From positions 372,001 through 436,000 of the forward strand of contig CAJINV010000016.1 of assembly GCA_905178155.1 (NCBI GenBank): a DNA stretch of 64,000 bases, written 5' to 3'. The position numbers and the translations under genes were made by a program. A model generated the notes under the pieces. The model saw only the letters and a list, made by a program, of their open reading frames with translations, ran no database searches and was not told the DNA's origin. Position 1 is the first letter of the stretch. Each line of letters begins with the position of its first letter. Shown here piece by piece: positions 1,385 through 60,774 of this stretch. The stretch is from Amoebophrya sp. A120 (lineage: Eukaryota; Protista; Dinoflagellata).

Positions 1385-4300
1385 TCAGTGCGTATCAACT
1401 CCAAAAATGTCTGGGTCTGGAAGATTGCCACGTTTGTCATGCAGGTTTTCTATGGCCCATAAAGTTTAGAATGCAGCACCTAGCATGACAAATTCTGTGA
1501 GATCTCTATCATGCCTATCATGCATGAGAAATTGCCTCTCAACTTGGTAAAAAAGGGCGGCTGTTGGTAATCACGCAACACAGATTTTTTGCACGATTCA
1601 GATTTAGCATGACAAGTTGCAACCTTCCAGACCCAGACATATTTGCATTTCATAGTGCGTCACGTTTTCCACCGTTAAGCTCCCCTTTCCGTCCACACTG
1701 AACATGAGGTCAATGTGGTGGTGCGATGTTTCTTCGATAGAGACGGTGGTGAGAGGCGTCCCGTCGGCGGCCACCACTTCAATGTTGAAGGAACCTGATA
1801 TACAATATTTTCTAGGTAGGTGAGGTTCACCATAGTCTCGATCCACGCAACATCACACCAGTGAAGACCTTGTGATGGGCCGCCGTCGTCCATGCAAAAA
1901 TTCAACGATTCGGAATAAGTATAATCAGGTGATGTTCTTTGTCATGCAACAAACATGAAATGCAGCTATGGTACCTGGTGCGCATGCGAAGCTCTCCTTC
2001 TGGCTGACGGGCACCGGAACGCCCTTGTGCAAAACTGGGAAAAATGACTTTGCGTTCCCCTTCTTCACGGAAATGCCGACGGCTTGAGACAGAGCGCTAC
2101 CCTCCATGGCGATACCTGTTCCGTAGAAGTTGTATGGTGGTAGTTTTATTATTTTGATGTCACATCTTTAGAAAATTTGTCATGCGAAAGTCACATTGAC
2201 ATTGCCAGCATGTCAAGCGAAATTCACATCGCAAGCATGTTTTGTCTTGCATAAAAGTCCCTGCTCTACAATAATTGTCCGAAAATTTACCTGGCGTATC
2301 GTCGTCGTCGGCTGGCTCGACATTTCCTTTCAGCTCTGCAGAAACCACCAACTCCCCCTCGTCCGTTGCTCCCATGTTGAGCAATACGTCCGCTTGTATT
2401 GCCGCGCCCATCGCGACCACCTCCTCGGCAAGCAAATCGGTCTCGCCCTTGAGCTATCAAATGCAAAAGTGTCTGGTGTTTTGTCTGGAAACAAGACCTT
2501 GGTACAGCACGGGGAAGAGAACGACTTGAACTTTTTGAAGAAAGAAAAGAAAAGAGAACTACGTGGATGCACTATGTAGAGAGAGATTAAAACATGCTAT
2601 TATGTCCACCGGTGGAACTAACTACTGCTACTTATACCGGGTCTGGAGCAAAGCACCTTGTCATGCTAAATCTGAATCATGTGAAAATCTGTGTTGCATG
2701 ATTACCAAAAGCTGTCCACTTTTGACCTAGTCGAGAGGTGGTTTCTCATGCAGGATAGGCATGATAGAACTCTCACAGAATCTGTCATGCTATGTCCTAC
2801 ATACCAGATCTCATGTGTCATGGAAAACCTGCATGACATGTCTGGCACTCTTCCAGACCCAGACACTTTTGCAGTTGATATGAGCTCCTTCGCTTTGCTG
2901 GCGCTGAAGGCCTCGGCAATCGTTTGGCTCACAACGGGGATGTTGCACCCGCCCCCGATGCACAAATACTCGTTGATCTTTGTTGAGGACGAAGTTGTAC
3001 TTGCGGCGACCTTCTCTTGCACTTCCTCGAGCATCTCCTTCAGTTGGTCAATAACGTTCTTCTCCTCGTCTTCCTTCTTCAGCATCTCCTCAAATTGCTC
3101 CCTGGTCACTTGTATGCATTGCAAATATCGATCTGGGGCTGGAATAAACTTGTGATGCGGAACGCGAAAGATTGGAACTGCGCTTGTGGGTGCAGACAAG
3201 CATGATAAGTTCTGAGAACGGCTGCTCGTCATGCGTATCCCGCATGACAAGCTGCGCTTTCGCATGACAAGAGAGTTCTCACCGCGTCTGTTGATGTCGG
3301 TCATGCAATGCAGATTTTCCACGACACACCCATGCAAGATAAGCATTGTAAGTTCAACCTTTCGAGACCCAGAAGATCGATATATTTGCAATGCATAACT
3401 TGCGTGAAGAAGTCCACATCGCCCAGCAATGCTTCCACCTCAATGGTGGCCCGCTTCGACACCGTGAGGGCCTTCTTCGCCTTTTCACAGGCTTCCTTGA
3501 GTCGCAGCATCGCTCGCTCCTCCTTCTTCAGCTGCAGGGCCGCCTTCGGGTCTTTCCTCTTCAAATCCTTGACGCAGTAGTCAAAGAGCGTTTCGTCCAT
3601 CAGCTTGCAGCATCAACTGCAAATATGTCTGGGTCTGGAAGAATGAAAGTTTGTCATGCAGCTTGCCTCGCGTGACTCTTGAATCTGTCATGCATGAGCA
3701 GGAAAGCAGCAGTCTCTTACTTGTCATGCAAAAACGGAGTTTGTCATGCGGGAAGCGAAACACATAGGAGCTCAGAAACTTGTCATGCGTGGCTGCGTAA
3801 GAACGCAGTGCGCCCACCGTGCACAAACTAGCATCACAAGTTGTTTCCAGACCCAGACATATTTGCAGTTCATATGCAGCCGAGGGACCCGGACCCCACC
3901 GAGGTCACCGGTCGGAAAATGCCGGAGTTTTATCCTGTGCAAAAGTATCGCACTCGTAGTAATTGCAGTCATGCAGTACAAATCTCTCTCTTAAGGCAAA
4001 TCAGCATTACAAATTTTATTTTTCATGCTGAGGAGATTTGAAATGCATTTATACGAGTACGATACTTCTTTTGCAATTCATAAGTTTTTGTTCACCGTGA
4101 AAACCGAGCAATCGATATCCTGAGGAAAAACGTCCCCACCCTCCAATACTTGTCATGCAAATCCGCAAGCCTAGAATGTCTCTCATGTGTAGCCCTATGA
4201 GAGCCATTAGCTAAAAATGCTATCTGGGAGTTTGTCATGCTAGAATCCGAATCAGCTAGTCAATTCGTCATGCGGTTATTTCACTAGGTAAACAGGATTA

Positions 4301-7063
4301 CACTGCGAGCCAGAACTTGTCATGCTCGACAGCCAAAACTTGTGGATGTGTGTAGCAGATTCCCCATCTTGACTATGAGGCGAGCAGGACGGTTTTACAT
4401 AGGATAATCGAAGGTAGACGCGCCGAGATCCACAACGGCCACTATCCTGAGTAAAAACGTCCCCACGACCCCATAGTTGTCATGCAGATGTGCGACTACA
4501 GGAAGATTTGTAATGCGCATCTCCATGAGAGGCATTTTCAATCGCGTTTTGGGATTTGTAATGCTGTAAACGGGATGAGCAGATGGATTTGTGATGCCGC
4601 TGCACTGGCTAAACTGCACTACACTACGGACTGCAACTTGTGATGCGTGACTCCCAAAACTCCTAGGTTTGTGTTGCAAAATCCCCATCCCGACTCTCAT
4701 GTGGGGACGTTTTTGAACGGGATAGCGACGGTTTTTTCCTCATCCTTGACCGCCGCCAGACCGTTCCCGCCCGCCGTTGCGGCTGATCCTTGCTGTGCTG
4801 CCTGTATCCTGGGGAAATAAGACGTCCCCAGTAGCTGCATCGTCCCACATTTTTTGTAGATGCAAATTATAATATCCATGAGAAGCAATTTCGCAGTCAT
4901 GCTCGTGGTCGAATTTTTTGTCGTGTTCGTGTAAAATACTATCAGGAGAAAAAAATCGGTTTGATGTGATGAAGATGCGCCTGCACTAGCGAAACACGAT
5001 CAAAATACTCTCCGAGTCCAAGCGGCTTGAATGACCACTCGAAGAGTATTTTTTGACAGGCTTCATTTTGCCTGGCAGTGCTCCCGTACTAGTTCTTCGT
5101 CTTGAAGACTTTATGACTATGACTACTGGGGAGGACCACCACGTGGTCGTTTTTTTTACGCGGGATAGAAGCTGCTCCACTCACGCTGCTGACATTGGGT
5201 GCTGCCATGCCCGGAATCAAGCGGTGGGCGAGGTAGGCCGGGGTGACGTCCAAGCCGTGGGCGATGAGCGCTGCGCACGGTTCCTTCAGTAGTCGCATCA
5301 CCTTCAACTGCGTCGCGCTGTTCTCGTGGCCCCAGTTCGGGCAGGACTCGCAGCAGGCCTTGAGCAACTCCGCCTTCTCGTCCGAATAGTGGGATGGCAC
5401 GGTCAAGACGCAGTGCGTGACTTTATGGAAGTGTCAGGATCGAAATCGTCAAAGTTGAAATAGTTTGTAAAAAGCGACTCTATTGCAGGGGATGCAAGGA
5501 AGGCGGATTATAGTCCAGGTAAGGGTCAAGTATTGGGCTGCTGACTAGCATGGCAGAAGGCAGCGCTTTTGCTCTAAACCGCATGACAGATTCGCTTCTA
5601 GGACGGGGAAAATTTGTCATGCGCCGACTACAAACTGTGGGTCTAACTGGCAACGATTTTGCGCATCACAAATTTTTCGACTTTGTCAATTTCGATTCTG
5701 ACACTTCCTTAGACTTCCTCCCCGAGGTACAGGCTCGCGGTCTCCCGGACTTTGGCGAAGTATGAACTGTAAAAGTATCGCACTCTATGTATTGCAATCA
5801 TGCATTACAACTCTTTTTCTTAAAATAAATCAGCATTACAAATTTTCTTTCTCATGCTGAGGAAATTTGTAATGCATTTATACGAGTACGATACTTTTCC
5901 CCAGGATACGAAGACGAGAGAGGCGATGTCTTCGAGGGGAACCGACGCCTCTTCCCACGCGAATTTGATGGCACAGGATTTGCTGGAAGAGGAGGCCTCG
6001 ACGATCTGGGTTTTTGAAAAATGTGGAGACGTACACGTAGGTATTTATAATCAAAATGGCTTTTATTGATGATGTAGTCGTGCAGTCATGATTCTGTATA
6101 AAGAAATACATCCATTCTGTGGTGGCGTTCAAGTTGGTCCAGCACCTCTACTTGCATGCAAGCCAAGAAGTACTAGACAAGTTCAAGAGGTGTCACGATC
6201 ATGCCGAATAAAGCGGAGAAGCTGCAATGGCTCACATTTAATAGTACTTACCTCAAGATGCTTCAACGCTTTGCTTTCTGCGATGTCTTCTTGGGTAATC
6301 TCGTCGTCGAACGGCTGGCCCAGCAGCTTCTTGAAGTCCCGCACCGTACCTTTGTTTGTTGTTGTTCCACCGTGTAAGTAAAAAACGTAGTTGTGCTTGC
6401 GCTGGCGCTTGATAGATGACAAGACATGGAGATCATGCAGCAAGGAAGATTTAACGTGGAGAGGATAACATGTGTCTGTATCTATCCCCACGACCACCTG
6501 GTCAACATGCAACGATGCAAAAATTCATCATCAAATCACGATGATGAGGTTTAGTTCTTCTGCAGCTACACAATATATTTATAGCTAGTACCTGGTAAAT
6601 TTCTCTCCTTCTGATTGTAAGCCGCATCCCCGACGGTGATTGTGCTACTGCCATCCGCTGCTTTGACGTAAGAAACGCAGACGTTTGTGCTTCGGTTTCC
6701 CATTTCGTTGGGGATCACTTCCTATCAAATGTAAAAATGTCTGGGTCTGGAAGAATGGAAGGCTTGTCATGCTTGTCTGGCATAACCCATGATGCTTCTA
6801 ATGGATGACCCAGCATCACAGATTTTTGGAAAGCTTCCTGATGCCATTTCCGCATGACACATGCCCTCCTCGCGTAGCACAAATGTGGCTCCTCTTGTTG
6901 GTCATGCAATACAGATTTTTTTAGAGTCCAAAGTTAGCATCACAAGTTCCAACTTTCCAGACCCAGACATTTTTACATTTGATACTTCCGTCTGACCGTT
7001 CTTCGACATGGCCACGACGCACGTGGTCGCGCCAAAATCGATACCGATACCGTAAGTCGACAT
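1385..7063 (-). CDS. atypical Hsp70-family protein (HSPA14/Ssz1-like), ~585 aa, 16 exons
   Basis: Spliced motifs GIGIDFGAT, VLTVP..LLKEPCAALIAHGLD, VVDLGASTFD, NSGIFR, RLKEACEKAKKAL, EEVVAMGAAIQA; short C-terminus without lid/EEVD. 11 introners plus GT-AG introns 1795-1974, 2116-2290, 6006-6251, 6350-6591; spliced length 1758 nt. Hsp70 family is secure, HSPA14 subfamily is by recalled similarity. Confidence 0.85.
1393..1654. mobile_element. introner family A
   Basis: TIR TATCAA..AAAATGTCTGGGTCTGGAAG; direct repeat gtgcg/gtgcg. Confidence 0.9.
2455..2880. mobile_element. introner family A with ~160-bp internal insertion
   Basis: Family A TIRs; direct repeat tgagc/tgagc. Confidence 0.85.
3113..3397. 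mobile_element. introner family A (diverged)
   Basis: Diverged family A TIRs; direct repeat acttg/acttg; removal joins FFTQV-TREQFEE. Confidence 0.9.
3611..3874. mobile_element. introner family A
   Basis: Family A TIRs (left end CATC); direct repeat tgcag/tgcag. Confidence 0.9.
3931..4082. mobile_element. introner family B
   Basis: TIR TATCCTGTGCAAAAGTATCG.ACTCGTA; direct repeat agttt/agttt. Confidence 0.9.
4116..4406. mobile_element. introner family C (diverged)
   Basis: TIR TATCCTGAG.AAAAACGTCC; direct repeat atcga/atcga. Confidence 0.85.
4443..4724. mobile_element. introner family C
   Basis: Family C TIRs; direct repeat gccac/gcgac. Confidence 0.9.
4805..5167. mobile_element. highly degenerate introner (C-like ends)
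   Basis: Residual TIR TATCCTGGGGAAATAAGACG / CGTTTTTTTTACGCGGGATA; direct repeat lost, but removing element plus 5 nt restores the Hsp70 frame. Confidence 0.6.
5424..5711. mobile_element. introner family I (singleton)
   Basis: ~37-bp TIR TATGGAAGTGTCAGGATCGAAAT; direct repeat gactt/gactt. Confidence 0.9.
5761..5908. mobile_element. introner family B
   Basis: Family B TIRs; direct repeat cgaag/cgaag. Confidence 0.9.
6723..6984. mobile_element. introner family A
   Basis: Near-perfect TIR TATCAAATGTAAAAATGTCTGGGTCTGGAA; direct repeat cttcc/cttcc. Confidence 0.95.
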
Positions 7064-7382
7064 TTTTGTCCAGTACTGAAATAAGTAATCGCTACAACTT
7101 GGGACGAAAGCCACAAAAAAATTCACTGGCGTAGCGCTTTTGCTGCAGCTGCAAGATGAATAAATACAGTTTGAATAAATGCAAGGGTTCGCTATGTTGT
7201 ACCAAAAATCGATGTTAGTTTATTCTCCGCAGCTGAATAAACGAAATTGTACGTGTTCTTAGTGGCCGCGTGCAAATGACGATCGAACGGGAAAAAGTAG
7301 GTGTAGTAAGTGGTGAATTTATAGCTAAAAAAAGAAACTTCGTCCTCTCCTGCGAAGTTTCAAGCACCTACGTGAGCCTGTT

Positions 7383-8368: not shown

Positions 8369-9818
8369 TCAGTAAAACCCCCCTTTTCCCATGCCCTGCC
8401 CTTTCCCGGACTTGCCGATGGTTTGCGCATACATTCCCATCTGGCGCTGCGCTCTATCCTGTGCAAAAGTATCGCACTCGTATAATTGCAATCATGCATT
8501 ACAAATTCTTTTTTTTAGGTAAATCCGCATTACAAATTTTATTTCTCATGCTGAGGGAGTTTGTCATGCATTTATACGAGCACGATACTTTTGCAGTTCA
8601 TACGCTCGCGTCTGAGCAGATTCCGGGCCTTGGTTCAGCACGTGTGCCTATGTATTGGAAATATGTCTGGGTCTGGGTGGAAAGTTGTATTAATGCCAAA
8701 AGTGAATGATTGATATGCGCACGCGCACGGCAATGCGCAGCCACGCATGACAAATTTTTTGGACTGCTATGTGATTCGTTTTGCGCATGACAGACTGCGT
8801 TTTTGCATGACAGACAAGAGGCCCTTATTTACATTTTCCACCTCCCCTCGCATTTTTCCAGAGTTTGGTTTCGCAGTCAAAGTCATGTGAGACAAGCATG
8901 ACAAACTTCTTGCACTCTTCCAGACCCAGACCTTCGATATTTGCATTTGATAATGCCCGGGAGTGCTTCGCCACCGTGGCCTGGTTTCGTGCGCTCGCCC
9001 GAACCATCGCGTTTTGCAGCTGTCCCATCGCGTTATTAATGTCGCTGGTGCCCTTGCTGTGGGTGACGCCCTTGGTGTACTGAATGTTTGCGGCAGCCTA
9101 TGGAGAGAAAAAAGTTTGTCACAGACACAGTCACAGTCACTATCTTGGAGGGTTTGCATTACAAATTTTCTCAGCATCACAAACTTTCCTTGTATTGCAG
9201 AAACACTAGGGAAATCCCTAATGAAGTTTGGCTTTGATGCATTTTTACGCATGACAAACAATTTTGTATTGCAAGAATGCGCATGAGTGATCGTGACGAA
9301 CTTTTTTTCTTTGATACTGCCTGCTCCAGCGCCAGGTCCCGCGTGATTTGTTCCCGCTGCAGGTGAATGTCGCGCGTCATCTCGTGGTAGCCACCCCACG
9401 ACCTCCGTTTGCGCTTCTCCTTTACATCTGCGTGGTGCTCGTCCCAGCGTCGGGCGTTCTCTATACCCTCGTGGTTGTACCGGGCCCACGCCTCGCGGTC
9501 CCGGTGCTGTTGCTTCTTTTTGTACAGAACCACGGCAACCACCACGCCGGCGAGTACCAGGAAAAGCAAAACATAGAACAGCACGTTATGGTCCGTGTTG
9601 CTGAATTGGAGCAACCGCTGCAGAAATTGCTCTTCCAAAGGGGTGGTTCTGGTTATCGAGTTCAATATGATTTCATCGTGTACTCCTGGAGACTTGTTTT
9701 CATAGACCCGGACCGCAGGCAATGCGTCGCTATAGTGGATGTCCACAAGCTGCTTAATAGTCGCAGAAGCTTCTTGCAGCGGAGAGGAGCTGCTGCCACG
9801 ATTGTCAAGCATTTGCAT
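8369..9818 (-). CDS. hypothetical single-pass membrane protein, ~254 aa
   Basis: TM segment VLFYVLLFLVLAGVVVAVVLY followed by KKK; three introners removed give 765 nt ending GKSGKGQGMGKGGFY*. Confidence 0.75.
8455..8602. mobile_element. introner family B
   Basis: Family B TIRs; direct repeat cgctc/cgctc. Confidence 0.9.
8649..8952. mobile_element. introner family A
   Basis: Family A TIRs; direct repeat gtgcc/atgcc. Confidence 0.85.
9099..9316. mobile_element. introner family J (singleton)
   Basis: TIR TATGGAGAGAAAAAAGTTTGTCAC / GTGACGAACTTTTTTTCTTTGATA; direct repeat cagcc/ctgcc. Confidence 0.85.
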
Positions 9819-11280: not shown

Positions 11281-14200
11281 TCAGTAAAACCCATCCCGTC
11301 CAGCTTGGTGAAGTTCCCGTTGCTGGTTGTAAATGTGCTCCACTCGGTCATAGCTCATGGGCGGGCGCACGACTATCCCAGAGAAAAAAGCTGGCAGGGG
11401 ATATTTGTAATGCAAAAATAAATAGACAGAAAAACTTGCCATGGGCGGCCCCCTAGCATGCACATGCTGCTTCGGATATGCAATGCAGATTTTTATTTTG
11501 TGTATTTATTTTTGCATTACAAATATGAGCTGGCAGCTTTTTTCTCTGGGATAACGACGCCCGTCTGCGCACTGGCGTCCGCCTCTCGTTTCGCAGCTAT
11601 CGCAAGAAAAAAGTGTTTCACTGTGAACTTGTGATGCATAGAATGGAACAGCACAGAACTATTTGTCTTGCTACACCTGCAAGACCTTGACTCTTTAGGG
11701 GTGTTTTCCCTTTGGAAGCGCGCATGGCAAATTTTCTGTGTCATGTGTAACAAACTTGTGATGCAGATCTTTCAGAGTCATTACAGTGAAACAGTTTTTT
11801 CGTGGGATAGCAGCCCGCATCACGTCAATCTGCGGCCCCCCGTGCGCCTGAAAGGCGCCCCGGAGCGACCACCCCCCGCCCCCGCCGCGCATCGAACTGG
11901 TGTTGTGGAGGATGTGGTCGTTCGCATTGGAGTATCCACAGGAAAAATCCCCCCACCTCTCACATCAAAAACGAAATTTGTGCTGCTGTATTTGAGTAAA
12001 CACAAATCGACTTTTAAGTATTGCCAGAAGGCCAAGAGACGCAGTTGCTCCCTCCTTTGCAGGCAATTTGTCATGCTGTTTTCCATTTCCATTCGGATTT
12101 GCCTCCGCCTCCTGTCGTGCTGAAGACGCACGGCTTTCCTACGCCACCCAGCACTACAGTCCGCTTCTTTTGCCACCTTCTAGCATGACAGCATGACTTG
12201 TGGTCTCAAATCATGCTACACAAATCTCCGCTTTAGTATGGGGAGGGGGGAATTTTCCTTTTGATATGGAGGTGCCGGCCTCCCATATGGATTGCAAAAG
12301 TATCGTACTCGTATAAATGCATTACAAATTTCTTCAGCATGAGAAATAAAATTTGTAATGCTGATTTGCCTTGATAAAGAAATTTGTAATGCAAGACCTG
12401 CATTTATACGAGTACGATACTTTTGCACAGGATATCCCAGTCGTGGTACCGATCTTCAAAGCCGTAGTGCCCGCGGCCTTCCAGTATCCTGAGTAAAAAC
12501 GTACCCACACCAGAGTCAATTTGGGGTTTTGCAACACAAACCTAGGACTTTTTGGAGTCACGCATGACAAGTTGCACTCCGTAGTGTAGTGCAGGGTAGC
12601 AAGTGCAGCTGCATCACAGATCCATCTGCTTATCCTGTTCATGGCATCACAAATTCCAAAACACGACTGAAAATGTGTACCGTGTGTATGCGCATCACAA
12701 ATGTCCTTGTCATTGCAAATCTGCATGACAACTCTGGGGTGGGAACGTTTTTCCTCAGGATATCCAGGCGCGCGTTAGCCTTGTCTTGCATCTTATCAAA
12801 TGTAAAAATCCCTGGATGTCTGGAAACTTGTGATGTTGCGTGGCGTCTCATGATGAGGCCACAAGTGCTGGCTCAGCATGACAAGTTTCTGAGCTTCTAG
12901 GCGTTGCCTATGCTGCATGACAAACTGCGTTTCTGCACCACAGAAGGGTGGGGCTCTTGGTTAACGTGCATGACAAATTTAAGAGTCATGCCAGACAAGC
13001 ATGACAAACATGCATTCTTCCAGACCCAGACATTTTTGCATTGGATACATCTTGTCCACTTGCCGCTGCGGTTTCTTCTTCGCCCGGGGTGTCCAACTGG
13101 CAATGTTGGTGTCCTCGTAGTAGTGCTCCCCGTGATCGCCGTGGTGCGTCACGGTTTGAAAGGTCGAAGTGGTCACCTGCCCTCCGCCCTTGCCGTGTTT
13201 GTTCAGCACCGCGTTTTTCTTTTGTTGCACGCGCTCCGAGCGCGGCGTCGCAGTTGCTCCACCGTGGTTGCTGTACCCAGCAGCTCCGGGGTAGGAACGG
13301 GTAGATGACATTTCGGAGGAAATCGAGCGGCTTGAGTGGGGAGTAGAGTCGTACCCGTGATGATCGCTGTACCCGGAGTGATGCGAATGGTGCCCGCTGT
13401 GATTGTGCGAATAGTCAGAGTGGTAGCCCTCGTGATCATCGTATTCTTCGTCCCATTCACCATCATGATCGTGGTAGCCGTAGCCTTCGTGCTCGTCATA
13501 ATGAGAATGTTCATCGTAATAGGAAGATTCGTCGCCATGGTGCGAGTGGTCTCCGTAGTGCGAATCTTCCCCGTAGTTGTGGTGGTCACTGTAGTGCGAT
13601 CCGTGGTCCGACCACCCTTCTTCGTAATGGCCGTGCTCGCCTCCGCCGTGGTGGTGGTTATGGCGTTCGCAAACGTTACATTCTCAACTGTTACATGGAT
13701 TTGTAATGCAAGAACAGCAACAGTGAAAGTGGCAATATTGCAGCTTTCGCATCACAGATTTTCCACAGATCATGATGCGGCTTAGCCCTTCGAAAATTTG
13801 TCATGCTAAGCACCTTGATCAAGTGGAGGCTGATGGCAGTTTTGCATGACAAATCCGTGTAACAGTTGAGAATGTAACAGTTGAGAACGCCATAGTGGTA
13901 GTGCTGGTCGTGATAGTTGCCCGCTTCGCCCTCAGCCGAAACGGTCTTATTGATCCGGCTTGTTTTATATGAACTGCAAAAGTATCGTACTCGTATAAAT
14001 GCATCACAAATTTCCTCAGCATGAAAAATGAAATTTGTAATGCGGATTTAGCTTAATGTAATGCATGATTGCAATACGAGTACGATACTTTTGCACAGGA
14101 TATTTTACGGGGTGTTTGCAGTTGCACCTCCGCCATCTCGAGGGCAACGTCATTGGCAGCGCTCATCGTCCTATGCATTGCAAAAATGCCTGGGTCTGGA

Positions 14201-46500: not shown

Positions 46501-49500
46501 GAGTTTTTTTTCCTACTTCTTCCATCCCGGTTGATGTTTTATCCTGAGTAAAAACGTACCCACACCAGAGTCAGGATGGGGATTTTGCAACACAAACCTA
46601 GGAGTTTTGTGAGTCACGCATGACAAGTTGCGCTCTGCAGTGTAGTGCAGGTTAGCAAGTGCAGCGGCGTCACAGATTCGTCTGCTCATCGTGTTCACAG
46701 CATCACAAATTCCAAAACACAATTGGAAATGGCTCTCATGGGGATGCGCATTACAAGTCTTCCTGTCTTTGCAAATCTGCATTACAACTCTGGTGTGGGG
46801 ACGTTTTTACTCAGGATATGTTTCTTTCGGTGTTTCTTTGCGCGGAAGAATCGGCGAAAACCAAATATCAAATGTAAAAATGTCTGGGTCTGGAAGAATG
46901 CAACTTGTGATGCTGCATGTGGATTCCAAAAATATCTGTATTGCATGAGCACGAAAGGGAATGCGATTTTTGCTACGCGGAGAGGGCATTTGTCGTGCGG
47001 AACAGGCATCAAGATTCCCGCAAAACGTCTGTGATGCTAGGGCATGCATCACAGACATCATGGCTCATGCAAAGCGTGCATGACAAGTGTCGAAATCTTC
47101 CAGACCCAGACATTTTTGCAATGCATACCAAAGCAGAGGAAACAATGATCTGCAAGGCGTAGGGGTAGTAGGAGGGAGCACCTGTAGTTCTTGAGTTCTT
47201 GTTGTGTGATTTATTCCGTCGAAGTTGAGTACTTAGAAGCAAACGAAAAGAGAAAGTGAAAGACATTTGTGTTGCATGAAACTGAAAGTAACGACCAACA
47301 ATTAATACAAACGGCCATCCTGTACGACGTAGCCCCGACGAGAGTCTGCAAATCGATGAAAGTGCAAGAGTAAAGCTTCAAGCGATGATCATTCTTCCGC
47401 AGAAAGCTATTCTGCATGCTGCTGCGCACTTTGGGGGGGCGTTTGTAAAATTACAAACGGGCACCAGTGGCACAAGAAGGTGCAACAAACACGGCGGGAC
47501 TCCAGAAAATCCCAAAACATTGGCAGTCTACGCGAAAAATTGCCCAAATCACAATAAAAACACAATCCCGATGGCAGAGCGCGTTTTTCCTCGTTTACAA
47601 ACGGCCGTTTGTAAAATACGAACGGCCATCCTGTACAACGTAGCCCCGACGGCAGTCTGCAAATCGAGAAAAGTGAAAGAGTAAAGCTGCAAGCGATGAC
47701 CATTCTTCCGAAGAAAGCTATTCTGCATGGTGCTGCGCACTTTGGGGGGGCGTTTGTAAAATTACAAACGGGTGCCGGTGGCACAAGAAGGCGCAACAAA
47801 CACGAAGGGACTCCAGAAAATCCCAAAACATTGGCAGTCTACGCGAGAAGTTGCCCAAATCGCGATAAAAACACAATCCCGATGGCAGAGCGCGTTTTTC
47901 CTCGTTTACAGACGGCCGTTTGTAAAATACAAACGACCATCCTGTACGACGTAGCCCCGATGGGAATCTGTAAATCGATAAAAGTTCAAGAGTAAAGCTT
48001 CAAGCGATGGCCATTCTTCCGAAGAAAGCTATCCTGCGTGCTGCTGCGCACTTTGGGGGGGCGTTTGTAAAATTACAAACGGGCACCGGTGGCACAAGAA
48101 GGCGCAACAAACACGGCGGGATTCCAGGAAATCCCAGAACGTTTGCAGTCTACGCGAAAAATTGCCCAAATCACAAGAAAAACACAATCCCGATGGCAGG
48201 GCGCGTTTTTCCTCGTTAACAAACGGCCGTTTGTAAAATACAAACGGCCATCCTGCACGACGTAGCCCCGACGGGAGTCTGCAAATCCATGATGAAAGTG
48301 CAAGAGTAAAGCTTCAAGCGATGGCCATTCTTCCAAAGAAAGCTATCCTGCATGCTGCTGCGCACTTTGGGGGGGCGATTGTAAAAATACAAGAGAAAGT
48401 GACGCTGTGAGACCCAGAAATCAATGGATTCCGCTCGGGCAAGGTCGTTTAAGGTTTCCCGGGAAACCTTCGGCTTAGCTCGTGCTAAAGTGTGTTGCAA
48501 TGCAACCGAAAACGCGGCGCGCGCAAGGACTCCGCTGCTGTTTGTTTGCACAACCGCGCCGCGTCTGCGTTGCAGTCTCGTGCGCCCAGATCGCCACAGT
48601 CGGCTGCGGATTGCGAGCAACCTGGCGGCCCCGGCAAACCGGCGCACATTTTCGCAGAGGATCCCGCAGAGGATTCCGCAGAGGATTCCAAAATCCTCTC
48701 AGGAATCCTCTGGCCCAAGTTGAGCCGTCCCCCGCGCCCTTTCCCCGACGGCAGTGCCTCGATTTCGGGGGAGGATTCCGCAGAGGATTCCTGAGAGGAT
48801 TCCAAAATCCTCTCAGGAATCCTCTGGCCCAAGTTGCGCCGTCTCTCGCGCCCTTTCGCCGACGGCAGTGCCTCGATTTCGCGGGAGGATTCCACAGAGG
48901 ATTCCTCAGAGGATTCCAAAATCCTCTCAGGAATCCTCTGGCCCAAGTTGCGCCGTCTTCCGCGCCCTTTCCCCGGCGGCAGTGCCTCGATTTCGGGGGA
49001 GGATTCCACAGAGGATTCCGCAGAGGATTCCGCCGAGGATTCCAAAATCCTCTCAGGAATCCCGTGGCCCAAGTTGAGCCGTCTTCCGCGCCCTTACCCC
49101 GGCGGCACTACCTCGATTTCGCGAGAGGATTCCGCAGAGGATTCTGCAGAGGATTCCAAAATCCCCACCCTCAGGAATCCTCTGGCCCAAGTTGGCCCGT
49201 CCCTCGCGCCCTTTCCCCGACGGCACTGCCTCGATTCCGGGCGCGGATTCCACAGAGGATTCCGCAGAGGATTCCGAAATCCTCTCGGGAACCCTCTGGC
49301 CCAAGTTGAGCCGTCTTCCGCGCCCTTCCCCCGGCGGTATTGCCTCGATTTCGGAAGAGGATTCCTGAGAGGATTCCAAAATCCTCTCCGGAATCCTCCG
49401 GCCGGATTCGCGCCGTCCTTCGCGGTCTTTCCCCGCCGGCACAGCGTCGATTTCGGGCACCGCGGCAAACCGGCGCACATTTTGGAAGATTTTGGAACGC

Positions 49501-52301
49501 ACTCGAGTGCAGGGCATCGCGGCAAACCGGCGCGCATTCTCTCGATTCTCAAGGCCTCGGGTGGTTGTGCGGACGCCTCCTGTTTCTGTGTGGTTGTCGC
49601 ATCTCGATCCTGCTGCTGGTTGTCAACGCGCCGCTTTGACAACCAGCAACACGCTGACAACTTGGAAGAACCAAGCCGAAACAAGAAATGTGCGCCGGTT
49701 TGCCGGTGCCGGTGCCCGTGCCCACCGCCAACGCGGCAAGGGCAAGGACCCCTAAGGCGGGAGCCTCTGGCGCAAGGGCGCACCCGCCCCGGGCTGGCCG
49801 GGTGTCCGTCGGGGAGGGAGTGAAACCCCGCGACGCCGGCGCAGTCCGAGGGGCAAGCACGAATATCGGATCCCTCCTGGCAAGGGGAGATCCCCGGAGG
49901 CTGGGGCGAACGCACCGGGGCGAGGGCGGATCCCCCGAGCTGAGGAGGATCCCCCCAAAGAAAGTTCGTAGGCTGGACCCCCCGAGGGCGCGCGGATCCG
50001 CGGGAGGCGGGCCGGCCCTCCGGGGCGAGGGCGGATCCCCCGAAGAACCGGCGGACCCCCCGGGGCGCGGGCGGATCCCCCGCAGAACAGGCGGATCCCC
50101 GGGGAGCGGGCGGATCCCCCGGAGAACCGGTGGGCCCCCCGGGCGAAGGCGGATCCCCCGGGGTGCGGGCGGAGCCCCCGGGGAACGGGCGCATCCCCCG
50201 GGAACGGGCGGATGCCCGAGGAACAAGCGGATCCCCTGGGCGAAGGCGGATCCCCGGTGAGCGGGCGGATCCCCGGGGAGCGGGCGGATCCCCGAGTAGC
50301 AGGCGGATCCCCTGGGCGAAGGCGGATCCCCGGGGAACGGGCGGACGGGACCCCCTGGGCGAAGGCGGATCCCCGGGGTGCGGGCGGACCCCCGGGAGCG
50401 GGCGGATCCCCTGAGCGAAGGCGGATCCCCGGGAGCGGGCGGATCCCCTGCGCGAAGGCGGATCCCCGGCGGGCGGATCCCCTGAGCGAAGGCGGTTCCC
50501 CGGGGAAGGGGCGGATCCCCTGGGCGAACGAAGGCGGATCCCCGGGGAACGGGCGGATCCCCTGGGCGAAGGCGGATCCCCGGGGAGCGGGCGGATCCCC
50601 GAGTAACAGGCGGATCCCCGGGGAGCGGGCGGATCCCCGTGGAGAGGCGGATCCCCCAAAAAACAAGAGAAATCGAAATCACGATGCTATGAGTATTTAT
50701 TTTTCGTCATTCTAAACACAAGAAAACCACGCTGCCGTCGTGTTTCGCTGGTTTGGGTCTCAGAGCGTCAGGGTCTCAAATACAAACGGGTGCCGGTGGC
50801 ACAAGACGGCGCAACAAACACGGCGAGATTCCAGAAAATCTCAAAACATTCGCAGTCTAGGCGAAAAATTGCCCAGATCACAATAAAAACACAATCCCGA
50901 TGGCAGAGCGCGTTTTTCCTCGTTTACAAACGGCCGTTTGTAAAATACGAACGGCCATCCTGTACGACGTAGCCCCGACGGGACTCTGCAAATCGAGAAA
51001 AGTGCAAGAGTAAAGCTTCAAGCGATGATCATTCTTCCGCAGAAAGCTATTCTGTATGCTGCTGCGCACTTTGGAATTACAAACGGGCACCGGTGGCACA
51101 AGCAGGCGCAACAAACACGGCGGGATTCCACGAAATCTTCAAAAATTCGATGTCTACGCGAAAAATTGCCCAAATCGCAATAAAAACACAATCCCGATGG
51201 CAGAGCGCGTTTTTCCTCGTTTACAAACGGCCGTTTGTAAAATACAAACGGCCATCCTGTACGACGTAGCCCCGACGGGACTCTGCAAATCGAGAAAAAT
51301 GAAAGCGTAAAGCTTCCAGCGATGATCATTCTTCCAAAGAAAGCTATCCTGCATGCTGCTGCGCACTTTGGGGGGGCGTTTGTAAAAATACAAACGGATG
51401 CCGGTGGCACAAGAAGGCGCAACAAACACGGCGAGATTCCAGAAAATCTCAAAACATTCGCAGTCTAGGCGAAAAATTGCCCAAATCGCGCTAAAAACAC
51501 AATCCCGATGGCAGCGCGCGTTTTTTCTCGTTTACAAACGGCCGTTTGTAAAAAATTGCAACAACAAAACCGTAGTTTCATATATTTACCTCCGATATCT
51601 TCTTCCGGATCCTCGGAAAACAGCGAGAGTCGCACGTTTTTCAAACACACCTCCATATTCCCCAAAACGTGCTGCACGAGCCTTGACAACGTTTCCACTC
51701 CCTCGTCCCCGTAGCCCGAGGATTGCGGTTCCTGCTTTTTCTTATCGGCAGTGCTACGATTTTTGCCTTTGGACGAAGATCCTCTTGACGAGTCGTAATC
51801 ACTGCTCGCCATTTGAAACTGCTGTTTTTTCTTCGTCTGGTTTGTCATTTTCGAGGTTGCTGAGGAAAACAGGTTAGAAGTACTCGATGACGAATGCTGA
51901 TGATCTGGGGAGTCTGGCCTGCTGGAATTGATCCCGTCAACATCCTGATCATCACCTGCAGATCCGTTCTTCCCGCTACTCAAAATACTCCCGGACACGT
52001 GCAAGTCCGCTATGTAAATTTTGCAGGATTTCTCCAACAAGCGGCTCCAGGGGATTTCCATGCGCAAATACCCCACCGCACCGTCGAGGAGCTTGAAGGG
52101 CGAGTCCTGCAGGTGTTCGTTCAGGAGGTCCGTTTCTAACTCCAAATTGCGCAACTCCAGCACTCCGTGCGACATTTGCAGGGAGACTTCCAGGTTGTCG
52201 AGGTCCAAATCTTTCCGCAGGAAGCCCCCGAGGAAACGGCGCAGCACATACTTGTAGAACCGCTTAAGCGGCACCTGCGTCAGACGGGCGGCGAACTCCA
52301 T
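31575..52301 (-). CDS. ATG2: autophagy-related protein 2 (chorein-N lipid transfer protein), ~3947 aa
   Basis: N-terminal LKRFYKYVLRRFLGGFL..LDLDNLEVSL..IPWSRLL; C-terminal LLPIRLTLDQD, DYRAKRLDMQALQRGDLTELINL, PIRSFANIG, RGTTAFLKNLTIE, QPADGLEG, LRGVRNSMDGERKEELERKYK. 14 introners plus GT-AG introns 31710-31839, 32287-32420, 43475-44204, 46127-46259, 47182-51589 give 11844 nt. Confidence 0.9.
32007..32227. mobile_element. introner family E
   Basis: Family E TIRs (left end CATC); direct repeat tttat/tttat. Confidence 0.85.
32635..32849. mobile_element. introner family E
   Basis: TIR TATCGTGAGAAAAAA; direct repeat aattc/aattc. Confidence 0.9.
33177..33388. mobile_element. introner family L
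   Basis: TIR TATCCAAGAAAAAAA; direct repeat gttgt/gttgc. Confidence 0.85.
33954..34109. mobile_element. introner family B
   Basis: Family B TIRs; direct repeat gactg/gactg. Confidence 0.85.
35822..36084. mobile_element. introner family G (long copy)
   Basis: TIR .ATGACAGTGCACAACTCCCCC; direct repeat tctgt/tctgt. Confidence 0.85.
36229..36492. mobile_element. introner family A
   Basis: Family A TIRs; direct repeat tgtcc/tgtcc. Confidence 0.9.
37885..38195. mobile_element. introner family D
   Basis: Family D TIRs; direct repeat caagt/caagt. Confidence 0.9.
40630..40779. mobile_element. introner family B
   Basis: Family B TIRs; direct repeat ccctt/cccct. Confidence 0.85.
41507..41715. mobile_element. 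introner family E
   Basis: Family E TIRs; direct repeat tgatt/tgatt. Confidence 0.9.
41780..42041. mobile_element. introner family A
   Basis: Family A TIRs; direct repeat cgaac/agaac. Confidence 0.9.
43504..44100. repeat. 132-bp tandem repeat, ~4.5 copies, in an ATG2 GT-AG intron
   Basis: Units starting tggagaatttctggagctca at about 43504, 43636, 43769, 43901, 44033. Confidence 0.95.
44289..44437. mobile_element. introner family B
   Basis: Family B TIRs; direct repeat ctcgt/ctcgt. Confidence 0.9.
45406..45730. mobile_element. introner family D
   Basis: Family D TIRs; direct repeat accgg/accgg. Confidence 0.9.
46540..46818. mobile_element. introner family C
   Basis: Family C TIRs; direct repeat tgttt/tgttt. 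Confidence 0.9.
46866..47127. mobile_element. introner family A
   Basis: Family A TIRs; direct repeat ccaaa/ccaaa. Confidence 0.9.
47305..48392. repeat. ~311-bp tandem repeat, left block (~3.5 copies)
   Basis: acggccatcctgtacgacgtagccccga recurs near 47310, 47620, 47930, 48245. Confidence 0.95.
48652..49460. repeat. ~115-125-bp GC-rich tandem repeat built from gaggattcc subunits
   Basis: Repeated gaggattccaaaatcctctcaggaatcctctggcccaagttg blocks. Confidence 0.9.
49880..50657. repeat. GC-rich minisatellite, ~19-20-bp unit with core ggcggatcccc
   Basis: Dozens of ggcggatcccc cores in tandem. Confidence 0.95.
50778..51555. repeat. ~311-bp tandem repeat, right block (~2.5 copies)
   Basis: Same unit as 47305-48392. 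Confidence 0.95.
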
Positions 52302-56040: not shown

Positions 56041-58159
56041 TCAATCCAAATCGTCGAGTTCGTCCTTCGATTCTACTGGTTTTTCAACTACTTCGACTTC
56101 CTTTTCCACAGATTTTTCTGCACTTGCTTTCCTACCCTGCTCCTCATCCACACCACTCCTGTCTTCACTGTGATCAGACGCCGACTTATTTTCAACGCCC
56201 GCGCCAGCAGAATTCGCAGTTGATTTCCCTTCCCCCGGTTCCTCTACCGCACAAGCCACCGCAGCACAAAACTTCGCTGCCTCCTCCTCGGTCGCGACAA
56301 ATTCGACCTTCTTCCGTAGCATCCGTAACCCGGTCACCATGCACCTCCCCAATTCCGTCATCTCCGCATTGCCGTCAATCCGCACGGTCTTTAAAGAGGG
56401 TAAATTATCCGGACTCGCGAGGAAGGCCACCAACTGCTGCATCCCCGCGTCCGCGATTTCGTTGTGGGAAAGGTCCAGGGTCTGGATGTAAGACGAGTCT
56501 GTGATTTTTTTATTTTCGTTTTCGATTTTCAAAGACAGGTGGATGTTCGATAAAAGTAGGCATGGAAAAGAGTATGTTATGCGTCTTGTTCTTTCTTGCA
56601 AACAATTACATTCCCCTCGAACATCGTTTTGCAACTCTACTGTCCTCTCACCTTTGCAAACCTCCAGCACACTCCCCATGTCCGTGTCCCCGAGGCCGAG
56701 TTTTGGGAGTTTGAGCACATTCCCCTTCAAGTACTGTTTCACTCCGGTCGCGGTGATGCCGTTGCATTTCTTGGATTCCGCAAGTTCTGCCGGCATTTTT
56801 GTCGACGGTCCGGTGGAAGAGGAGGATGAAGTGGATGCTCCTGCTGCAGTTTCTGTGGTGGGAAATTCCAATACAGTTCATTCCTGAGACGAAATCATGA
56901 CACCATAATCACGTAGTATAATTCATCGTGAATAACAATAACACCTACACCTAGACGCGTCCTCGAATATAATGGCGCATCCGAGCAAGAAAAGCAAAAG
57001 TGACAGCTTGTGCGCGTGACATTATACCATCATCCCCCAAAAGTTTCTCGTCTTTTCCCCCAGGAGCCCGACCATCCCCCTTGTTCCCGCTGCAACTCGC
57101 TTTCGACTGAATGCTGTAACTCCCACTTTCCGCGTCCGGCTTGAACGCCAACGTCGCCCGGTGGTCCTTCGATTCCTGTTCCAACCGTTCGATTTCCGTC
57201 AAAATCTCCTGCATCCGCTTCCGCATGCCCGGGGCTCGCTCTTTAAAATCGGCTTCCCCGACGTACTATCAACTGCAAAGGTGTCTGGGTCTGGAAGATT
57301 TCTAGATTTGTCACGCATATCTTGCATGAGCCATGATGTCTGTGATGCATGCCGTAGCATCACAGACTTTTAGAGGGCTTTGTGATACCTCTACCGCATG
57401 AGAAATGCCCTCTCCACGTAGGACAAACCCGACCCCTCTTGCTGGTCATGCAATACAAATCTTTTTAGAATCCACAGACAGCATCACAAGTTGTGACCTT
57501 CCAGACCCAAACATATTTGCATTTGATACGTACTTCAGACAGTCCAAGCAGTAACTCACCACCTTTCCCGTTTCCCGAAACGCCTGCTTCTTGAAATCTT
57601 CCGGTAGAACACACCCGGCTATCGTGAGGAAAAATCCCCCCTCCCCATATTGACGAGGTGCGTTTTCGAAATTTGTGTTGCTGATTTGTGGCCACAATTA
57701 GCGTCTGTCTTGCAAGAAGGCAACTCCGCAGGCTCCGCCGCATTATGCAGGCGGTTTGTCATGCTGTTGGGCCTACAGTGCGGAAGTTTTTCATGCTAAG
57801 CGCCTAGGCAAAACCTCTCTCCTCAGACTCGATAGGGGCCTGCAGCCCTCTCCAGCAACACAAACCTGATTTGCGTACGCAAATCCAGCATCAGAAACTT
57901 CATTTTGATATGGGGAGAGGGGATTTCTCATTTTGATACCGGGCTTGTGGTGGCGGGACTGGACCTTCCAGGCGAATTCTCGGAGCTTTTCGACCTGTTC
58001 CGTGAAGGGTAATTCCTCCCAAGGTCTAGTGTCCGTCTCCTTCGCCGGAAGATCGTTGGCTTTCTGATAGCTATTGCGGGTATCCAGCTGCTTTGCGTCG
58101 TGTTCCTCATCGCTGTCGATCTCCTCGATACGAGGGCCGTCGGAATAGGAAGGAGCCAT
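56041..58159 (-). CDS. leucine-rich repeat (RI-like) protein
   Basis: LRR motifs LKLPKLGLGDTDM, IQTLDLSHNEIADAGMQQL, LKTVRIDGNAEMTELG; acidic ends RIEEIDSD and ELDDLD; two introners plus probable GT-AG introns near 56500-56650 and 56850-57027 (boundaries uncertain). Confidence 0.7.
57267..57528. mobile_element. introner family A
   Basis: Family A TIRs; direct repeat cgtac/cgtac. Confidence 0.9.
57620..57938. mobile_element. introner family D
   Basis: Family D TIRs; direct repeat ccggc/ccggg. Confidence 0.9.
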
Positions 58160-58684: not shown

Positions 58685-60774
58685 TTACACACCAAACACA
58701 ATCTCCTTTCCCTTCAGCAGGAAGTTCTGCGCTAGTGCGATCAAACCTAAAATGCAGCCTTTATGAATTGCAAAGATGTCTGGGTCTGGAAAAATGCAAC
58801 TTGTGATGCTATTTTTGGAATCTACAAAAATCTGTATTGCATGAGCAGCAAGAGGCGTCCAGTTTTTGCCCCGCGTTGGAGAGGGCATTTGTCATGCGGG
58901 ATAGGCATCAAGATACCCGCAAAAAAATTGTGATGCTGGGGCATACATCGCAGACATCACAGGCCATGCAAAATGTCCATGACAAGTCTTGCAATCTTCC
59001 AGACCCAGACACTTTTACAATCCATAGCCTTTCACAAACGACAAAACGCAGATGAAGGTGATGGAAATGGGTAGGACCAGGTAAAAGAAGGAAAAGAAGA
59101 AGGGCCAGAGCGGGCCAGCGGTTGTACTTGGTGGTGGCGACGATGTTGCACAAGATGACGCAGTGGGCATCTTTGTAAACAAAGGCAATGAGAAGCTGCT
59201 CGTCCTGCCTCGATCCCCACGATTATTCTCGAGCTCGTCTAGCTCGTCACACGGAGTTTGGTTCCCAGACCCAGCTTCTTCGATCGATTGCGCATTTTTC
59301 GCTATCGCTGCTTTCTTTTCCAGCACTTTCTCCACCGCCTGGCGAAATTCCCGGGTAGCGCAGACGACGACGAGATTGCGTTTCTCGTCCGCTTGCTTCT
59401 CCTCCGCCACTCGCTCTATCTGTTTCGCAAAATGTTCCGCCCGTTTTTCGATCAAGGTCGGCACCATGGCGAGGGGAAGAGGGAGTTTCGTGTCGGCACC
59501 GGCAGTTGTACTAGTTGTAGCATCTTTATTCACAGAGGCAGCTGCCGCGGTATTTACTTCGCCTAGTACCCCTACATCACCACTATTTGCACCTCCAGTA
59601 GCCATGCCACCAGAACCATCTCCAGCATCCGCATGTCGTGTGCAGCTCCTTTGCTCCTCCAGCAATCTCGTTCGCCGACTCACATCCGCCAGCCGCTGTT
59701 TTGCGTATTTCGCGTACTGAAAAAGCAACCAGGGCTTTAGGAACAGCAGTTTCGCCACGTCGTTCTGCGTTTGCCGGTACAGCTGGTCGCAGGGATGGAA
59801 GGTGGTCGTGGTGCTACTCGTAGTGGAAGTAGCACCAGAGTTCATCGTGTCCTCGCCCTTAGTATCGTTTGTAATATTTTTTGTCATGCTATTCTTCAAT
59901 TCCAGCATATGCTCTGCAAAAGTATCGTACTCGTACTAATTGCAATCATGCATGACAAATCTTGTTTTTTTAGCGAAATCAGCATTACAAATTTCATTTC
60001 TCCTTCTGGAAAAATCTGTAATGCTATTTCTACTAGTACGATACTTTTGCAATGCATACAGCAGATCTCGAGACAGAAGCCCGCCGTGCAGCGTGTTTAT
60101 CGCGTCCAACTGAGCTTGGTATTTTTCGCTGTTATGGACTGTAAAAATGTCTGGGTCTGGAAACTTGTGATGCTGGGTGGCGTATCATGAAGGGGCCACA
60201 AGTACTGGCTCAGCATGGCAAGCTTTTGAGCTTCTAGGTGTTGCCTCTTCTGCATGACAAGCTGCGTTTCTGCATGACAGCAAAATGGGGCTCTTGGGTA
60301 ACGTGCATGACAGATTTAAGAGTCATGCCAGACACGCACGACAAACATGTACTCTTCCAGACCCAGACATATTTGCAATGCATAGCTGTTCGCGTTCTGC
60401 AAATTCTTCCACCGGACCGGGCAAGTTTCGAGCAGGATGTGTGCTGGGTTGAGCGCAAGCACAGTCGTGGAAAGCCGCTGGGTACTAGTCTCTGAAGATG
60501 TTGTCCATCTTGATGTGGTGCTCCTCGTCAGAGAAAATGCTTCTGCGTCAAGAAACGTGATCCGATTGCCGCCGCTTCGTAATGTGCTGGTGCTTGTTGT
60601 CCCGAAAGTACGAGTTCTTCTTGTACTAGAGGGTGAACGTGAAGTAAAAGTCTCACGCCCTAATAAGTAGACACTCGAGCCGCATGTTCTGGAGCACAGT
60701 GCTGGTGATCTGCTTGAAGTGGAAAATGCATGCTGTGCTGATGCGGAGGAGGAGGTGCTCAAGAAGATCTTCAT
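58685..60774 (-). CDS. divergent TraB/TRABD-like membrane protein, ~468 aa, possibly mitochondrial
   Basis: Ser/Arg-rich, acid-poor N-terminus; NPAHILLETCPVR resembles TraB PDxVxVELCxxR; LIEKRAEHFAKQI and NLVVVC resemble TraB C-terminal motifs; C-terminal TM; three introners removed give 1407 nt. Confidence 0.55.
58762..59026. mobile_element. introner family A
   Basis: Family A TIRs; direct repeat gcctt/gcctt. Confidence 0.9.
59908..60058. mobile_element. introner family B
   Basis: Family B TIRs; direct repeat cagca/cagca. Confidence 0.9.
60133..60384. mobile_element. introner family A
   Basis: Family A TIRs; direct repeat gctgt/gctgt. Confidence 0.9.

Follow-up and report, generated by a model that had tools for sequence, protein, structure and literature searches.

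A 64-kb window of Amoebophrya sp. A120 (the whole stretch of 64,000 nucleotides analysed here) carries introns bordered by short direct repeats, raising the question of where within the repeat the transcript is cut and which machinery cuts it. Between positions 1388 and 60389, 64 elements were identified, each with a 5-bp direct repeat and inverted ends of the form [TC]AT…AT[AG], a size of 85-426 bp (median 255) and a host gene on the minus strand. The repeats were perfect in 51 and imperfect in 13, and the upstream copies comprised 63 different 5-mers among the 64, which rules out a consensus within the repeat, in line with an earlier note on this DNA. The inverted ends consisted of TAT, 7 variable bases and then an A-run (A at positions 11-14 in 78-88 of 92 ends), and 10 families at a threshold of at least 70% took in 52 of the 64 elements. 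Copies occurred in both orientations (65:69), and an orientation bias was rejected. With terminal inverted repeats (TIR), a target duplication of fixed length, multiple copies and either orientation, the elements are, as judged by these features of the DNA, MITE-like, having been inserted either way round with duplication of 5 bases. For pooled tests (n = 349), 342 related elements were found, and 285 oriented ones were retained after 57 unoriented ones had been dropped; the finder recovers 59 of the 64 window elements and required a 5-bp offset, so that these loci do not independently test the duplication length. Two further TAT…ATA elements, 4805-5167 and 43422-44203, have lost the repeat (none left and decayed, respectively). 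An Rfam search of the window gave zero matches, and the branch-point motif CT[AG]A[CT] occurred in the elements without enrichment (1.8 vs 1.5 per kb); of the terminal ATA, the A lying farthest from the junction was retained in 347 of 349.

The elements are the published introner elements (IEs) of Amoebophrya sp. A120 (Farhat et al. 2021, PMC7789003), and the introns themselves are already known. Two exons of the window are 100% matches to proteins that bear the name Amoebophrya sp. A120, and, within the accessible part of that paper, both sets share inverted ends of TAT, 7 variable bases and at least 3 A, a border repeat (3-5 nt as an IE feature, 5 bp here), a length of about 250 nt, repeated families, absence from transcripts, non-GT-AG ends and a mixture with GT-AG introns in one gene, with nothing different in kind. 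The border is unknown and 'variable' in that part of the paper, whereas here it is confined to a point 3-4 bases inside the repeat; also added to the picture it gives are the indifference to orientation, dinucleotides at chance level and elements without a repeat. The same text states that most A120 introns do not obey the GT-AG rule, reports no transposase in A120, and already raises both of the main mechanisms weighed below. In the literature outside subscription papers, including the text but not the figures of PMC7789003, no statement was found on the register, orientation independence or donor-side asymmetry, and PMC12787238 and PMC12621601 contain nothing on A120 introns.

The elements are real introns that are removed without GT-AG. 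In X1 and X3, which are contigs guessed to be RNA (no run recorded as RNA covers the stretch), element joints skip exactly the element plus 5 bases in 13 of the 13 listed (15 of 21 joints are listed), and the same contigs skip GT-AG introns. The DNA contigs of X5 continue from exons into elements, and the raw RNA runs X8 and X9 hold only element fragments, without exons. Moreover, deposited proteins of 2948 and 3908 residues are rebuilt by exact element removal. The ATG2 gene (31575..52301, minus strand, as are all genes described here; 3908 aa; PF13329; 100% identical to P0001, named A120) chains its exons across 19 introns, of which 15 have the length of an element plus 5 (32007-32227, 32635-32849, 33177-33388, 33954-34109, 35822-36084, 36229-36492, 37885-38195, 40630-40779, 41507-41715, 41780-42041, 43422-44203, 44289-44437, 45406-45730, 46540-46818 and 46866-47127) and 4 are GT-AG introns starting at 51589 (4408 nt), 46259 (133), 32480 (194) and 31839 (130); RNA joints cover 8 of the elements and 2 of the GT-AG introns. 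The 782-bp TAT…ATA element 43422-44203, whose repeat has decayed to a 1/5 match and which contains a tandem array of 132 bp, is still removed, since the deposited protein, rather than RNA, requires a length of 787 (element plus 5) and a cut after 2-4 bases of the repeat. The 2948-aa gene (16110..30554) holds 23 elements (17036-17173, 17391-17614, 17968-18380, 18634-18951, 19270-19584, 19796-20034, 20081-20284, 20339-20482, 21188-21272, 21934-22182, 22398-22718, 23751-23964, 24014-24329, 24492-24632, 24768-25024, 25305-25579, 25797-26132, 26199-26343, 26677-26826, 26907-27166, 27293-27571, 27619-27843 and 28779-29013), and its RNA support comprises joints listed for 5 elements, a piece end at 27619 and spacer lengths of 212, 248 or 297 for 8 more.

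In the HSP70-like gene (1385..7063; 585-aa model; Pfam HSP70 match by exon 3400-3603 at 4e-8), element introns (1393-1654, 2455-2880, 3113-3397, 3611-3874, 3931-4082, 4116-4406, 4443-4724, 4805-5167, 5424-5711, 5761-5908 and 6723-6984) occur together with GT-AG introns (6350-6591, 6006-6251, 2116-2290 and 1795-1974). The model mRNA, 7378..1001, has 2457 nt and equals the X3 contig coordinate 2457, with the acceptor at 6350 picked after the needed length was known; a solution with five GT-AG introns was sought and none was obtained. Removal of the repeat-less element 4805-5167 plus 5 bases preserves the frame: among lengths of 360-375, it stays open throughout with 362, 368 and 371 alone, and 368 is the single length that yields 2457 nt when combined with the four chosen GT-AG introns. 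This removal is derived from the model rather than from an RNA joint and is a fit, not a proof, given 104 length-compatible GT-AG combinations in the ranges tried and a final acceptor outside them. The claim of the earlier note that GT-AG introns lie beside elements in one gene is borne out by the 4 in the ATG2 gene (two skipped in RNA contigs) and the 4 in the HSP70-like model, and its two recognition logics on one transcript hold to the extent that two sets of cis signals coexist, with element introns lacking GT-AG beside GT-AG introns in the ATG2 RNA joints. In the 428-aa gene (11281..14645), an ORF appears only upon exact removal of 9 elements (11374-11553, 11598-11809, 11933-12266, 12286-12434, 12485-12762, 12794-13047, 13659-13894, 13968-14102 and 14172-14426), and the intron length is not a multiple of 3 in 8 of the 9. 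An ORF is also obtained upon removal in the 205-aa gene (56951..58159; elements 57267-57528 and 57620-57938), where both lengths are multiples of 3 and the frame test is weak; the 468-aa gene (58685..60774) contains elements 58762-59026, 59908-60058 and 60133-60384.

The earlier note took the junction to slide freely across the repeat, which is not borne out: mismatched repeats bound the cut to 3 or 4 bases into it (the register, i.e., the number of upstream repeat bases kept). In element 25305-25579 (25300..25584), the copies differ at repeat positions 3 and 5, and the joint 25300->25581, a skip of 280 with 1 ambiguous base, is identical in X1 and X3 and agrees with the database protein P0003, placing the cut after base 3 or 4. 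A mismatch at repeat position 3 of 18634-18951 (18629..18956; spacer of 248 nt) shows that at least 3 upstream bases are kept, as the X3 piece begins at 18952 with 0 other letters, and a mismatch at position 5 of 41780-42041 (41775..42046) limits them to at most 4, as spliced pieces start at 42043 in X1 and X3. Further RNA contigs give at least 2 (40630 and 27619) or at least 1 (26199, 33177 and 17968), and proteins give at least 2 for 19796 and 2-4 for 43422. The bounds thus cover 8 elements by RNA contigs and 2 by protein, are deciding in only 4 of them, and leave out 4 of the 13 imperfect repeats (4443, 8649, 9099 and 57620). Every readable element is compatible with register 3-4, and P0003 shows 0 differences from the 2948-aa model across the 23 elements only at register 3 or 4. 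The distance between the cut and the hairpin ends is likely constant. A polarity test between registers 3 and 4, asking whether the A/T allele lies in the intronic copy, was dropped together with an apparent 9:4 at position 4, as the control showed no bias at positions 1-3.

Computed enumeration of all registers on the sense strand of the 64 elements reproduced the earlier counts exactly, with 0 GT-AG, 3 GC-AG (8649, 9099 and 58762) and 3 GA-AG (6723, 14172 and 36229); the meaning attached to them did not withstand comparison with chance. Random coding 5-mers predict 2.4 GT-AG, 1.1-1.5 GC-AG, 2.8 GA-AG and about 58 elements with none, matching the observation, and the probability of zero GT-AG is about 0.09 for 64 elements. 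Furthermore, GT-AG was possible in 12 of the 285 further oriented elements (10.6 expected) and in 12 of the 349 pooled (13.0 expected). The absence of GT-AG in the window is a sampling effect, and GT-AG avoidance was rejected. Enrichment of GC-AG or GA-AG was rejected as well, with registers offering GT-AG, GC-AG or GA-AG in 38 of 349 elements vs about 36 expected. With these counts close to random expectation, no selection on splice dinucleotides, favourable or adverse, is seen in the repeats. Five of the six GC-AG/GA-AG solutions sit at register 1, and 58762 (GC-AG, register 3) alone falls inside the observed register; since the junction lies 3-4 bases into the repeat, those five are probably coincidences. 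U2-type GT/GC-AG ends are available to 3 of the 64 elements at any register, all of them GC-AG (1 at register 3, 0 at register 4). Elements 19270, 20081 and 26677 offer GT-AG on the non-coding strand only (CT-AC on the sense strand).

As to the machinery, we give roughly even chances to excision by a modified U2-type spliceosome that the paired ends guide. It would measure from these ends rather than read GT and AG. The register would be identical for all copies and equal to 4, so that the intron would read N-U-A-U…A-U-A-N-N-N-N, with the invariant U as donor +2 and A as +3, as in host GT-A donors; the pair G+1/G-1 found in normal introns would be given up simultaneously at either end, and the acceptor would be held at a fixed distance by the terminal stem or by a stem-bound protein. 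Because the cut offset and the duplication length both sum to 5, insertion would be scarless, which would explain the spread of the elements. The donor-side T is invariant (349/349), and among the window's 8 GT-AG donors, all 8 carry T+2 and 7 carry A+3. Deviations of the first TIR base number 0 on the donor side and 8 on the acceptor side, and those of the third base 9 vs 2 (n = 349; p = 0.0007 by Fisher's test, 0.015 with the loci alone), an asymmetry noticed post hoc that rests on 25 deviant bases in elements without RNA verification. The donor-side pattern (U fixed, next A/G, next free) resembles +2/+3/+4, and both A-to-G variants carry a G immediately ahead of the T. Seven of the 8 acceptor-end changes create a U-G wobble, and a closing-pair requirement therefore also explains the asymmetry; the invariant T would fit U+2 of a relaxed spliceosome but a closing base pair as well. 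Several features count against a spliceosome. No acceptor sequence was seen, as all 16 acceptor dinucleotides occur at register 4 and the terminal ATA tolerates a change at each base. A strand-specific machine would not usually serve both orientations equally well (65:69), and a stem covering +2 onward must open for U6 pairing. For A120, the accessible part of PMC7789003 reports nearly all spliceosomal proteins plus U2, U4, U5 and U6, with U1 not found, which may reflect divergence; its Table S4 has T second in all 9 commonest A120 end types, an aligner-dependent result. In the relative Kv, both GT-AG introns and U1 are present (PMC12005148). The lack of U1 in the two strains that carry such introns, together with its presence in Kv, points to an altered spliceosome and counts against a separate machine.

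Such a machine is nevertheless a tenable, if tentative, alternative: a non-spliceosomal endonuclease and ligase, or a Euglena-like activity resembling back-splicing, would recognise the terminal stem and make staggered cuts 1-2 bases before and 3-4 after it, leaving GT-AG introns to the ordinary spliceosome. Symmetric ends, orientation indifference, no dinucleotide selection and a dispensable repeat favour it, as do strong hairpins (z of -9.1 and -8.5; two elements folded) and a sense strand that folds slightly better than the antisense (188/342, p = 0.03; 189 vs 146 for the terminal duplex, p = 0.011). However, this folding bias is about 1%, the 20 terminal pairs show no RNA-pairing signal (213 G-U vs 214 A-C oppositions), pairing is mostly lacking at pairs 4-7 and mismatches arising on the donor side are tolerated at pair 3. 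Euglena's nonconventional introns (PMC12501133; PMC11282704) have the same geometry of a short 5' and a longer 3' spacer around paired terminal motifs, with abundant direct repeats, free junction bases and GT-AG introns alongside. Euglena is an unrelated lineage with the motif CDG/CH'G, spacers of 3 and 5-6 and a purine at the next exon start, whereas A120 has TAT/ATA, spacers of 1-2 and 3-4 and no purine rule; the signature N3-CDG…CH'G-N5-6 is absent here, and the next exon starts with a pyrimidine in 134 of 349 elements at register 4. Excised circles have been shown in Euglena. The stronger proposition, that A120 has a second nuclear mRNA splicing machine of origin independent of Euglena, a ruler on the transposon's terminal stem that would cut 1 base before and 4 after regardless of sequence or orientation and be matched to the 5-base duplication of tens of thousands of scarless insertions, is rather unlikely.

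It is highly improbable that a single spliceosome chooses the register per element, using GT-AG, GC-AG or GA-AG where the repeat offers it (the six solutions being really used) and otherwise a nearby site. The Fig. 3 legend in the accessible part of PMC7789003 calls splice sites 'variable' relative to the hairpin, and none of the six solutions has a mismatch readable in RNA; against this, such registers are not enriched and all readable elements fit 3-4. Slightly more improbable still is removal of the elements from DNA in the transcribing nucleus, or reverse-transcriptase template switching across hairpins between direct repeats. A hairpin with a short repeat is a classic setting for template switching, and the RNA nature of X1 and X3 is only a guess; against this, long ORFs, the ATG2 Pfam domain and the 27-45% homologue P0004 cross junctions of lengths mostly not multiples of 3, the 25305 join has one ambiguous base and is identical in two runs, GT-AG introns are skipped in these contigs too, and the DNA contigs of X5 run from exons into elements.

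Other transposon-derived introns offer partial parallels. MITE-derived introns of Fritillaria borealis (PMC11282704; PMC13326754) share a TIR and target-duplication origin, non-GT-AG ends and precise removal, but have preferred AG-AC/AG-AT ends, a target preference, conserved U1 and reported spliceosomal removal, the last of which speaks for a modified spliceosome in A120. The introners of Aureococcus and Micromonas, as described in the accessible part of PMC7789003, are likewise non-autonomous TIR transposons turned introns, with canonical splice sites, whereas the A120 elements show no selection for such sites (GT-AG in 12/349 vs 13.0). With a fixed register, the blurred border gives way to defined substrate ends (N-UAU…AUA-NNNN, or shifted by one base), and these indicate where a branch should be sought, how the sequence of an excised circle would run and what change in an snRNA or protein is to be expected; a spliceosome that works without G+1 and AG would be of broad interest, and so would a second splicing machine. 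Gene annotations that take GC-AG or GA-AG inside the repeats are probably following coincidences. In the small membrane-protein gene (8369..9818), the ORF is restored by removal of elements 8455-8602, 8649-8952 and 9099-9316, the latter two GC-AG at register 1, and the deposited A120 protein P0002 has 9099 spliced but reads into 8649.

The elements are removed exactly from transcripts. A search for direct repeats around inverted repeats, followed by end-profile refinement, identified 64 of these transposon-like introns within positions 1388-60389 of the window, with a summed length of 15.4 kb. Every element is flanked on both sides by a 5-base repeat. Inside it, TAT is followed by roughly seven variable bases and a run of A; then comes a body of 85-426 bases, and the far end mirrors the first, finishing in ATA, with the ends pairing into strong stems upon folding. 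Two extra elements with the same ends and little or no repeat (4805-5167 and 43422-44203) were found via gene models; the repeat is dispensable in these two, neither of which was observed as an RNA junction. Deletion of each element with one repeat copy opened extended reading frames, confined to the minus strand (2949, 3011, and 446 codons across 23, 10, and 9 elements, respectively), even though 46 of the 64 lengths are not multiples of three. Element length plus five bases was skipped at 13/13 element joints among the joints listed (15 of 21), which came from two contig sets presumed, by guess, to be RNA. The same contigs also skip two GT-AG introns, and spacers of 212, 248, and 297 are consistent with the removal of eight further elements. 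An HSP70-like model with 11 elements and four GT-AG introns matched the contig's length of 2457, one acceptor being fitted, and the deposited ATG2 corresponds to 15 element introns and four GT-AG introns; the RNA-presumed runs, deposited proteins, and window are possibly not mutually independent. The deposited protein P0002, from the small membrane-protein gene at 8369..9818 (-), reads through into element 8649-8952 rather than splicing, reflecting either a mistake in annotation or a copy that was left unspliced.

Sense-strand enumeration bore out the earlier note's claim that no register of the window elements gives GT-AG, and recovered its three GC-AG (8649, 9099, and 58762) and three GA-AG (6723, 14172, and 36229) solutions. 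Random coding 5-mers gave chance expectations of 2.4, 1.1, and 2.8 for GT-AG, GC-AG, and GA-AG, respectively, with 58 elements lacking all three versus 57.9 expected. A pattern scan of metagenome contigs yielded 149 loci with 342 distinct related elements, 285 of which were oriented, from sequence alone, by a coding model that was correct for 57 window elements, wrong for one, and silent for six. GT-AG was possible in 12 of the 285 (10.6 expected), GC-AG in seven (6.6), and GA-AG in 13 (12.3). The absence of GT-AG in the window is sampling, and the repeats are random, unselected target duplications. The metagenome loci bear the same element families as the window (identity up to 96%, similar density), with the accession prefix JACKZZ01 common to the 79 contigs listed, and no exons common to their contigs and the window were found.

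The earlier proposal that the junction slides freely across the repeat did not hold, as mismatched repeats bound the number of upstream repeat bases retained (k), and all readable elements are compatible with k = 3 or 4. RNA-presumed contig joints gave k = 3 or 4 at 25305, k at most 4 at 41780, at least 2 at 40630 and 27619, and at least 1 at 26199 and 33177; contig piece ends gave at least 3 at 18634 and at least 1 at 17968, and protein comparison gave at least 2 at 19796 and 2 to 4 at 43422. No readable element contradicted this, the tight bounds being set by four elements only and the reading covering nine of the 13 imperfect repeats among the 64. A 2948-aa database protein likewise agrees with the model only at k = 3 or 4. 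Five of the six GC-AG/GA-AG solutions are located at k = 1 and thus are probably unused, the sixth (58762) lying at k = 3. At k = 4, 64/64 introns begin with N-T, and all 16 dinucleotides occur at the 3' end. An attempt to tell k = 3 from k = 4 failed its own control; we infer that k is uniform across elements and equals 4.

Element orientation is irrelevant to removal, with copies in both orientations in the largest window family (8:6) and the related loci (65:69, seven more unclear). The sense strand folds with an advantage of only 1%, and terminal pairs showed no excess of G-U over A-C (213:214). Among 349 elements, the first T of the donor end had no changes and its mirror base at the acceptor end had eight; third-base changes numbered nine at the donor end against two at the acceptor end, an asymmetry noticed post hoc and involving few bases. 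At k = 4 it would read as a fixed U+2, A or G at +3, and a free +4, as in the window GT-AG donors (T+2 in 8/8, A+3 in 7/8). Because a U-G pair is retained in 7/8 acceptor-end first-base changes, the need for a closing pair would explain the first position equally well.

As to the catalyst, we infer a relaxed U2-type spliceosome, at about an even chance, which would still read the donor U-A, give up G+1 and AG together, and set the acceptor position by distance from the stem. It is favoured because of the asymmetry, the reported spliceosomal inventory (nearly complete, U1 not found, in the excerpts of Farhat et al. 2021, PMC7789003), the presence of U1 in the GT-AG relative Kv (excerpts of PMC12005148), and the Fritillaria introns cited as support (excerpts of PMC11282704; PMC13326754). 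Somewhat less probable is a separate stem-guided machine, supported by the symmetry of the elements and by Euglena introns, in which the spacers are arranged in the same way and the products are circular (excerpts of PMC12501133; PMC11170887). A register chosen per element fits worse than either and is improbable; DNA excision or template switching also fits worse and is marginally less credible still.

The system is already known, since the excerpts of Farhat et al. 2021 (PMC7789003) describe these elements. There, A120 introners have ends that open with TAT, seven loose bases, and at least three A, carry repeats of 3-5 nt, and have a border position left unknown, with non-canonical introns making up 65%. 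The window elements belong to this class, agreeing on every feature tested, and two window exons are 100% identical to proteins named Amoebophrya sp. A120. The canonical introner class was ruled out, as was the Euglena-type intron by its signature. The elements are MITE-like without a known transposase, and A120 introners span several transposon types (excerpts of PMC12130899). Register and signal detail are an addition, not found in the literature searched, the excerpts of PMC11453091 adding nothing on either; the unanswered question of a published oddity is now more directly testable.

Terminal pairs 4-7 separate the main stem from a 3-bp helix at the element ends. They are mostly unpaired (Watson-Crick 34-55%) and make up a conserved internal loop, a candidate recognition feature. 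The motif TTGT[CG]ATGC, common to otherwise unrelated element families, has 48 copies (complement 49) in the 15.4 kb of elements and one (complement six) in the 48.6 kb outside, and is a candidate binding site for a putative transposase or splicing factor. The eight window GT-AG introns have A/C-rich 3' ends without a clear pyrimidine tract, and therefore the host's ordinary acceptors are unusual too. One of them (31710-31839) contains a 9-bp inverted repeat and ends in TGATACAG, resembling an element end plus three bases; judged from its sequence, it is possibly an old element become canonical. The ATG2 GT-AG intron at 47183-51589 (4408 nt) is filled with satellites (periods 311/297, 114-126, 39, and 19). 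The 2948-aa protein (gene 16110-30554) had no Pfam family, and it has a hydrophobic stretch at the N-terminus and one relative, the database protein P0004 (27-45% over five stretches).
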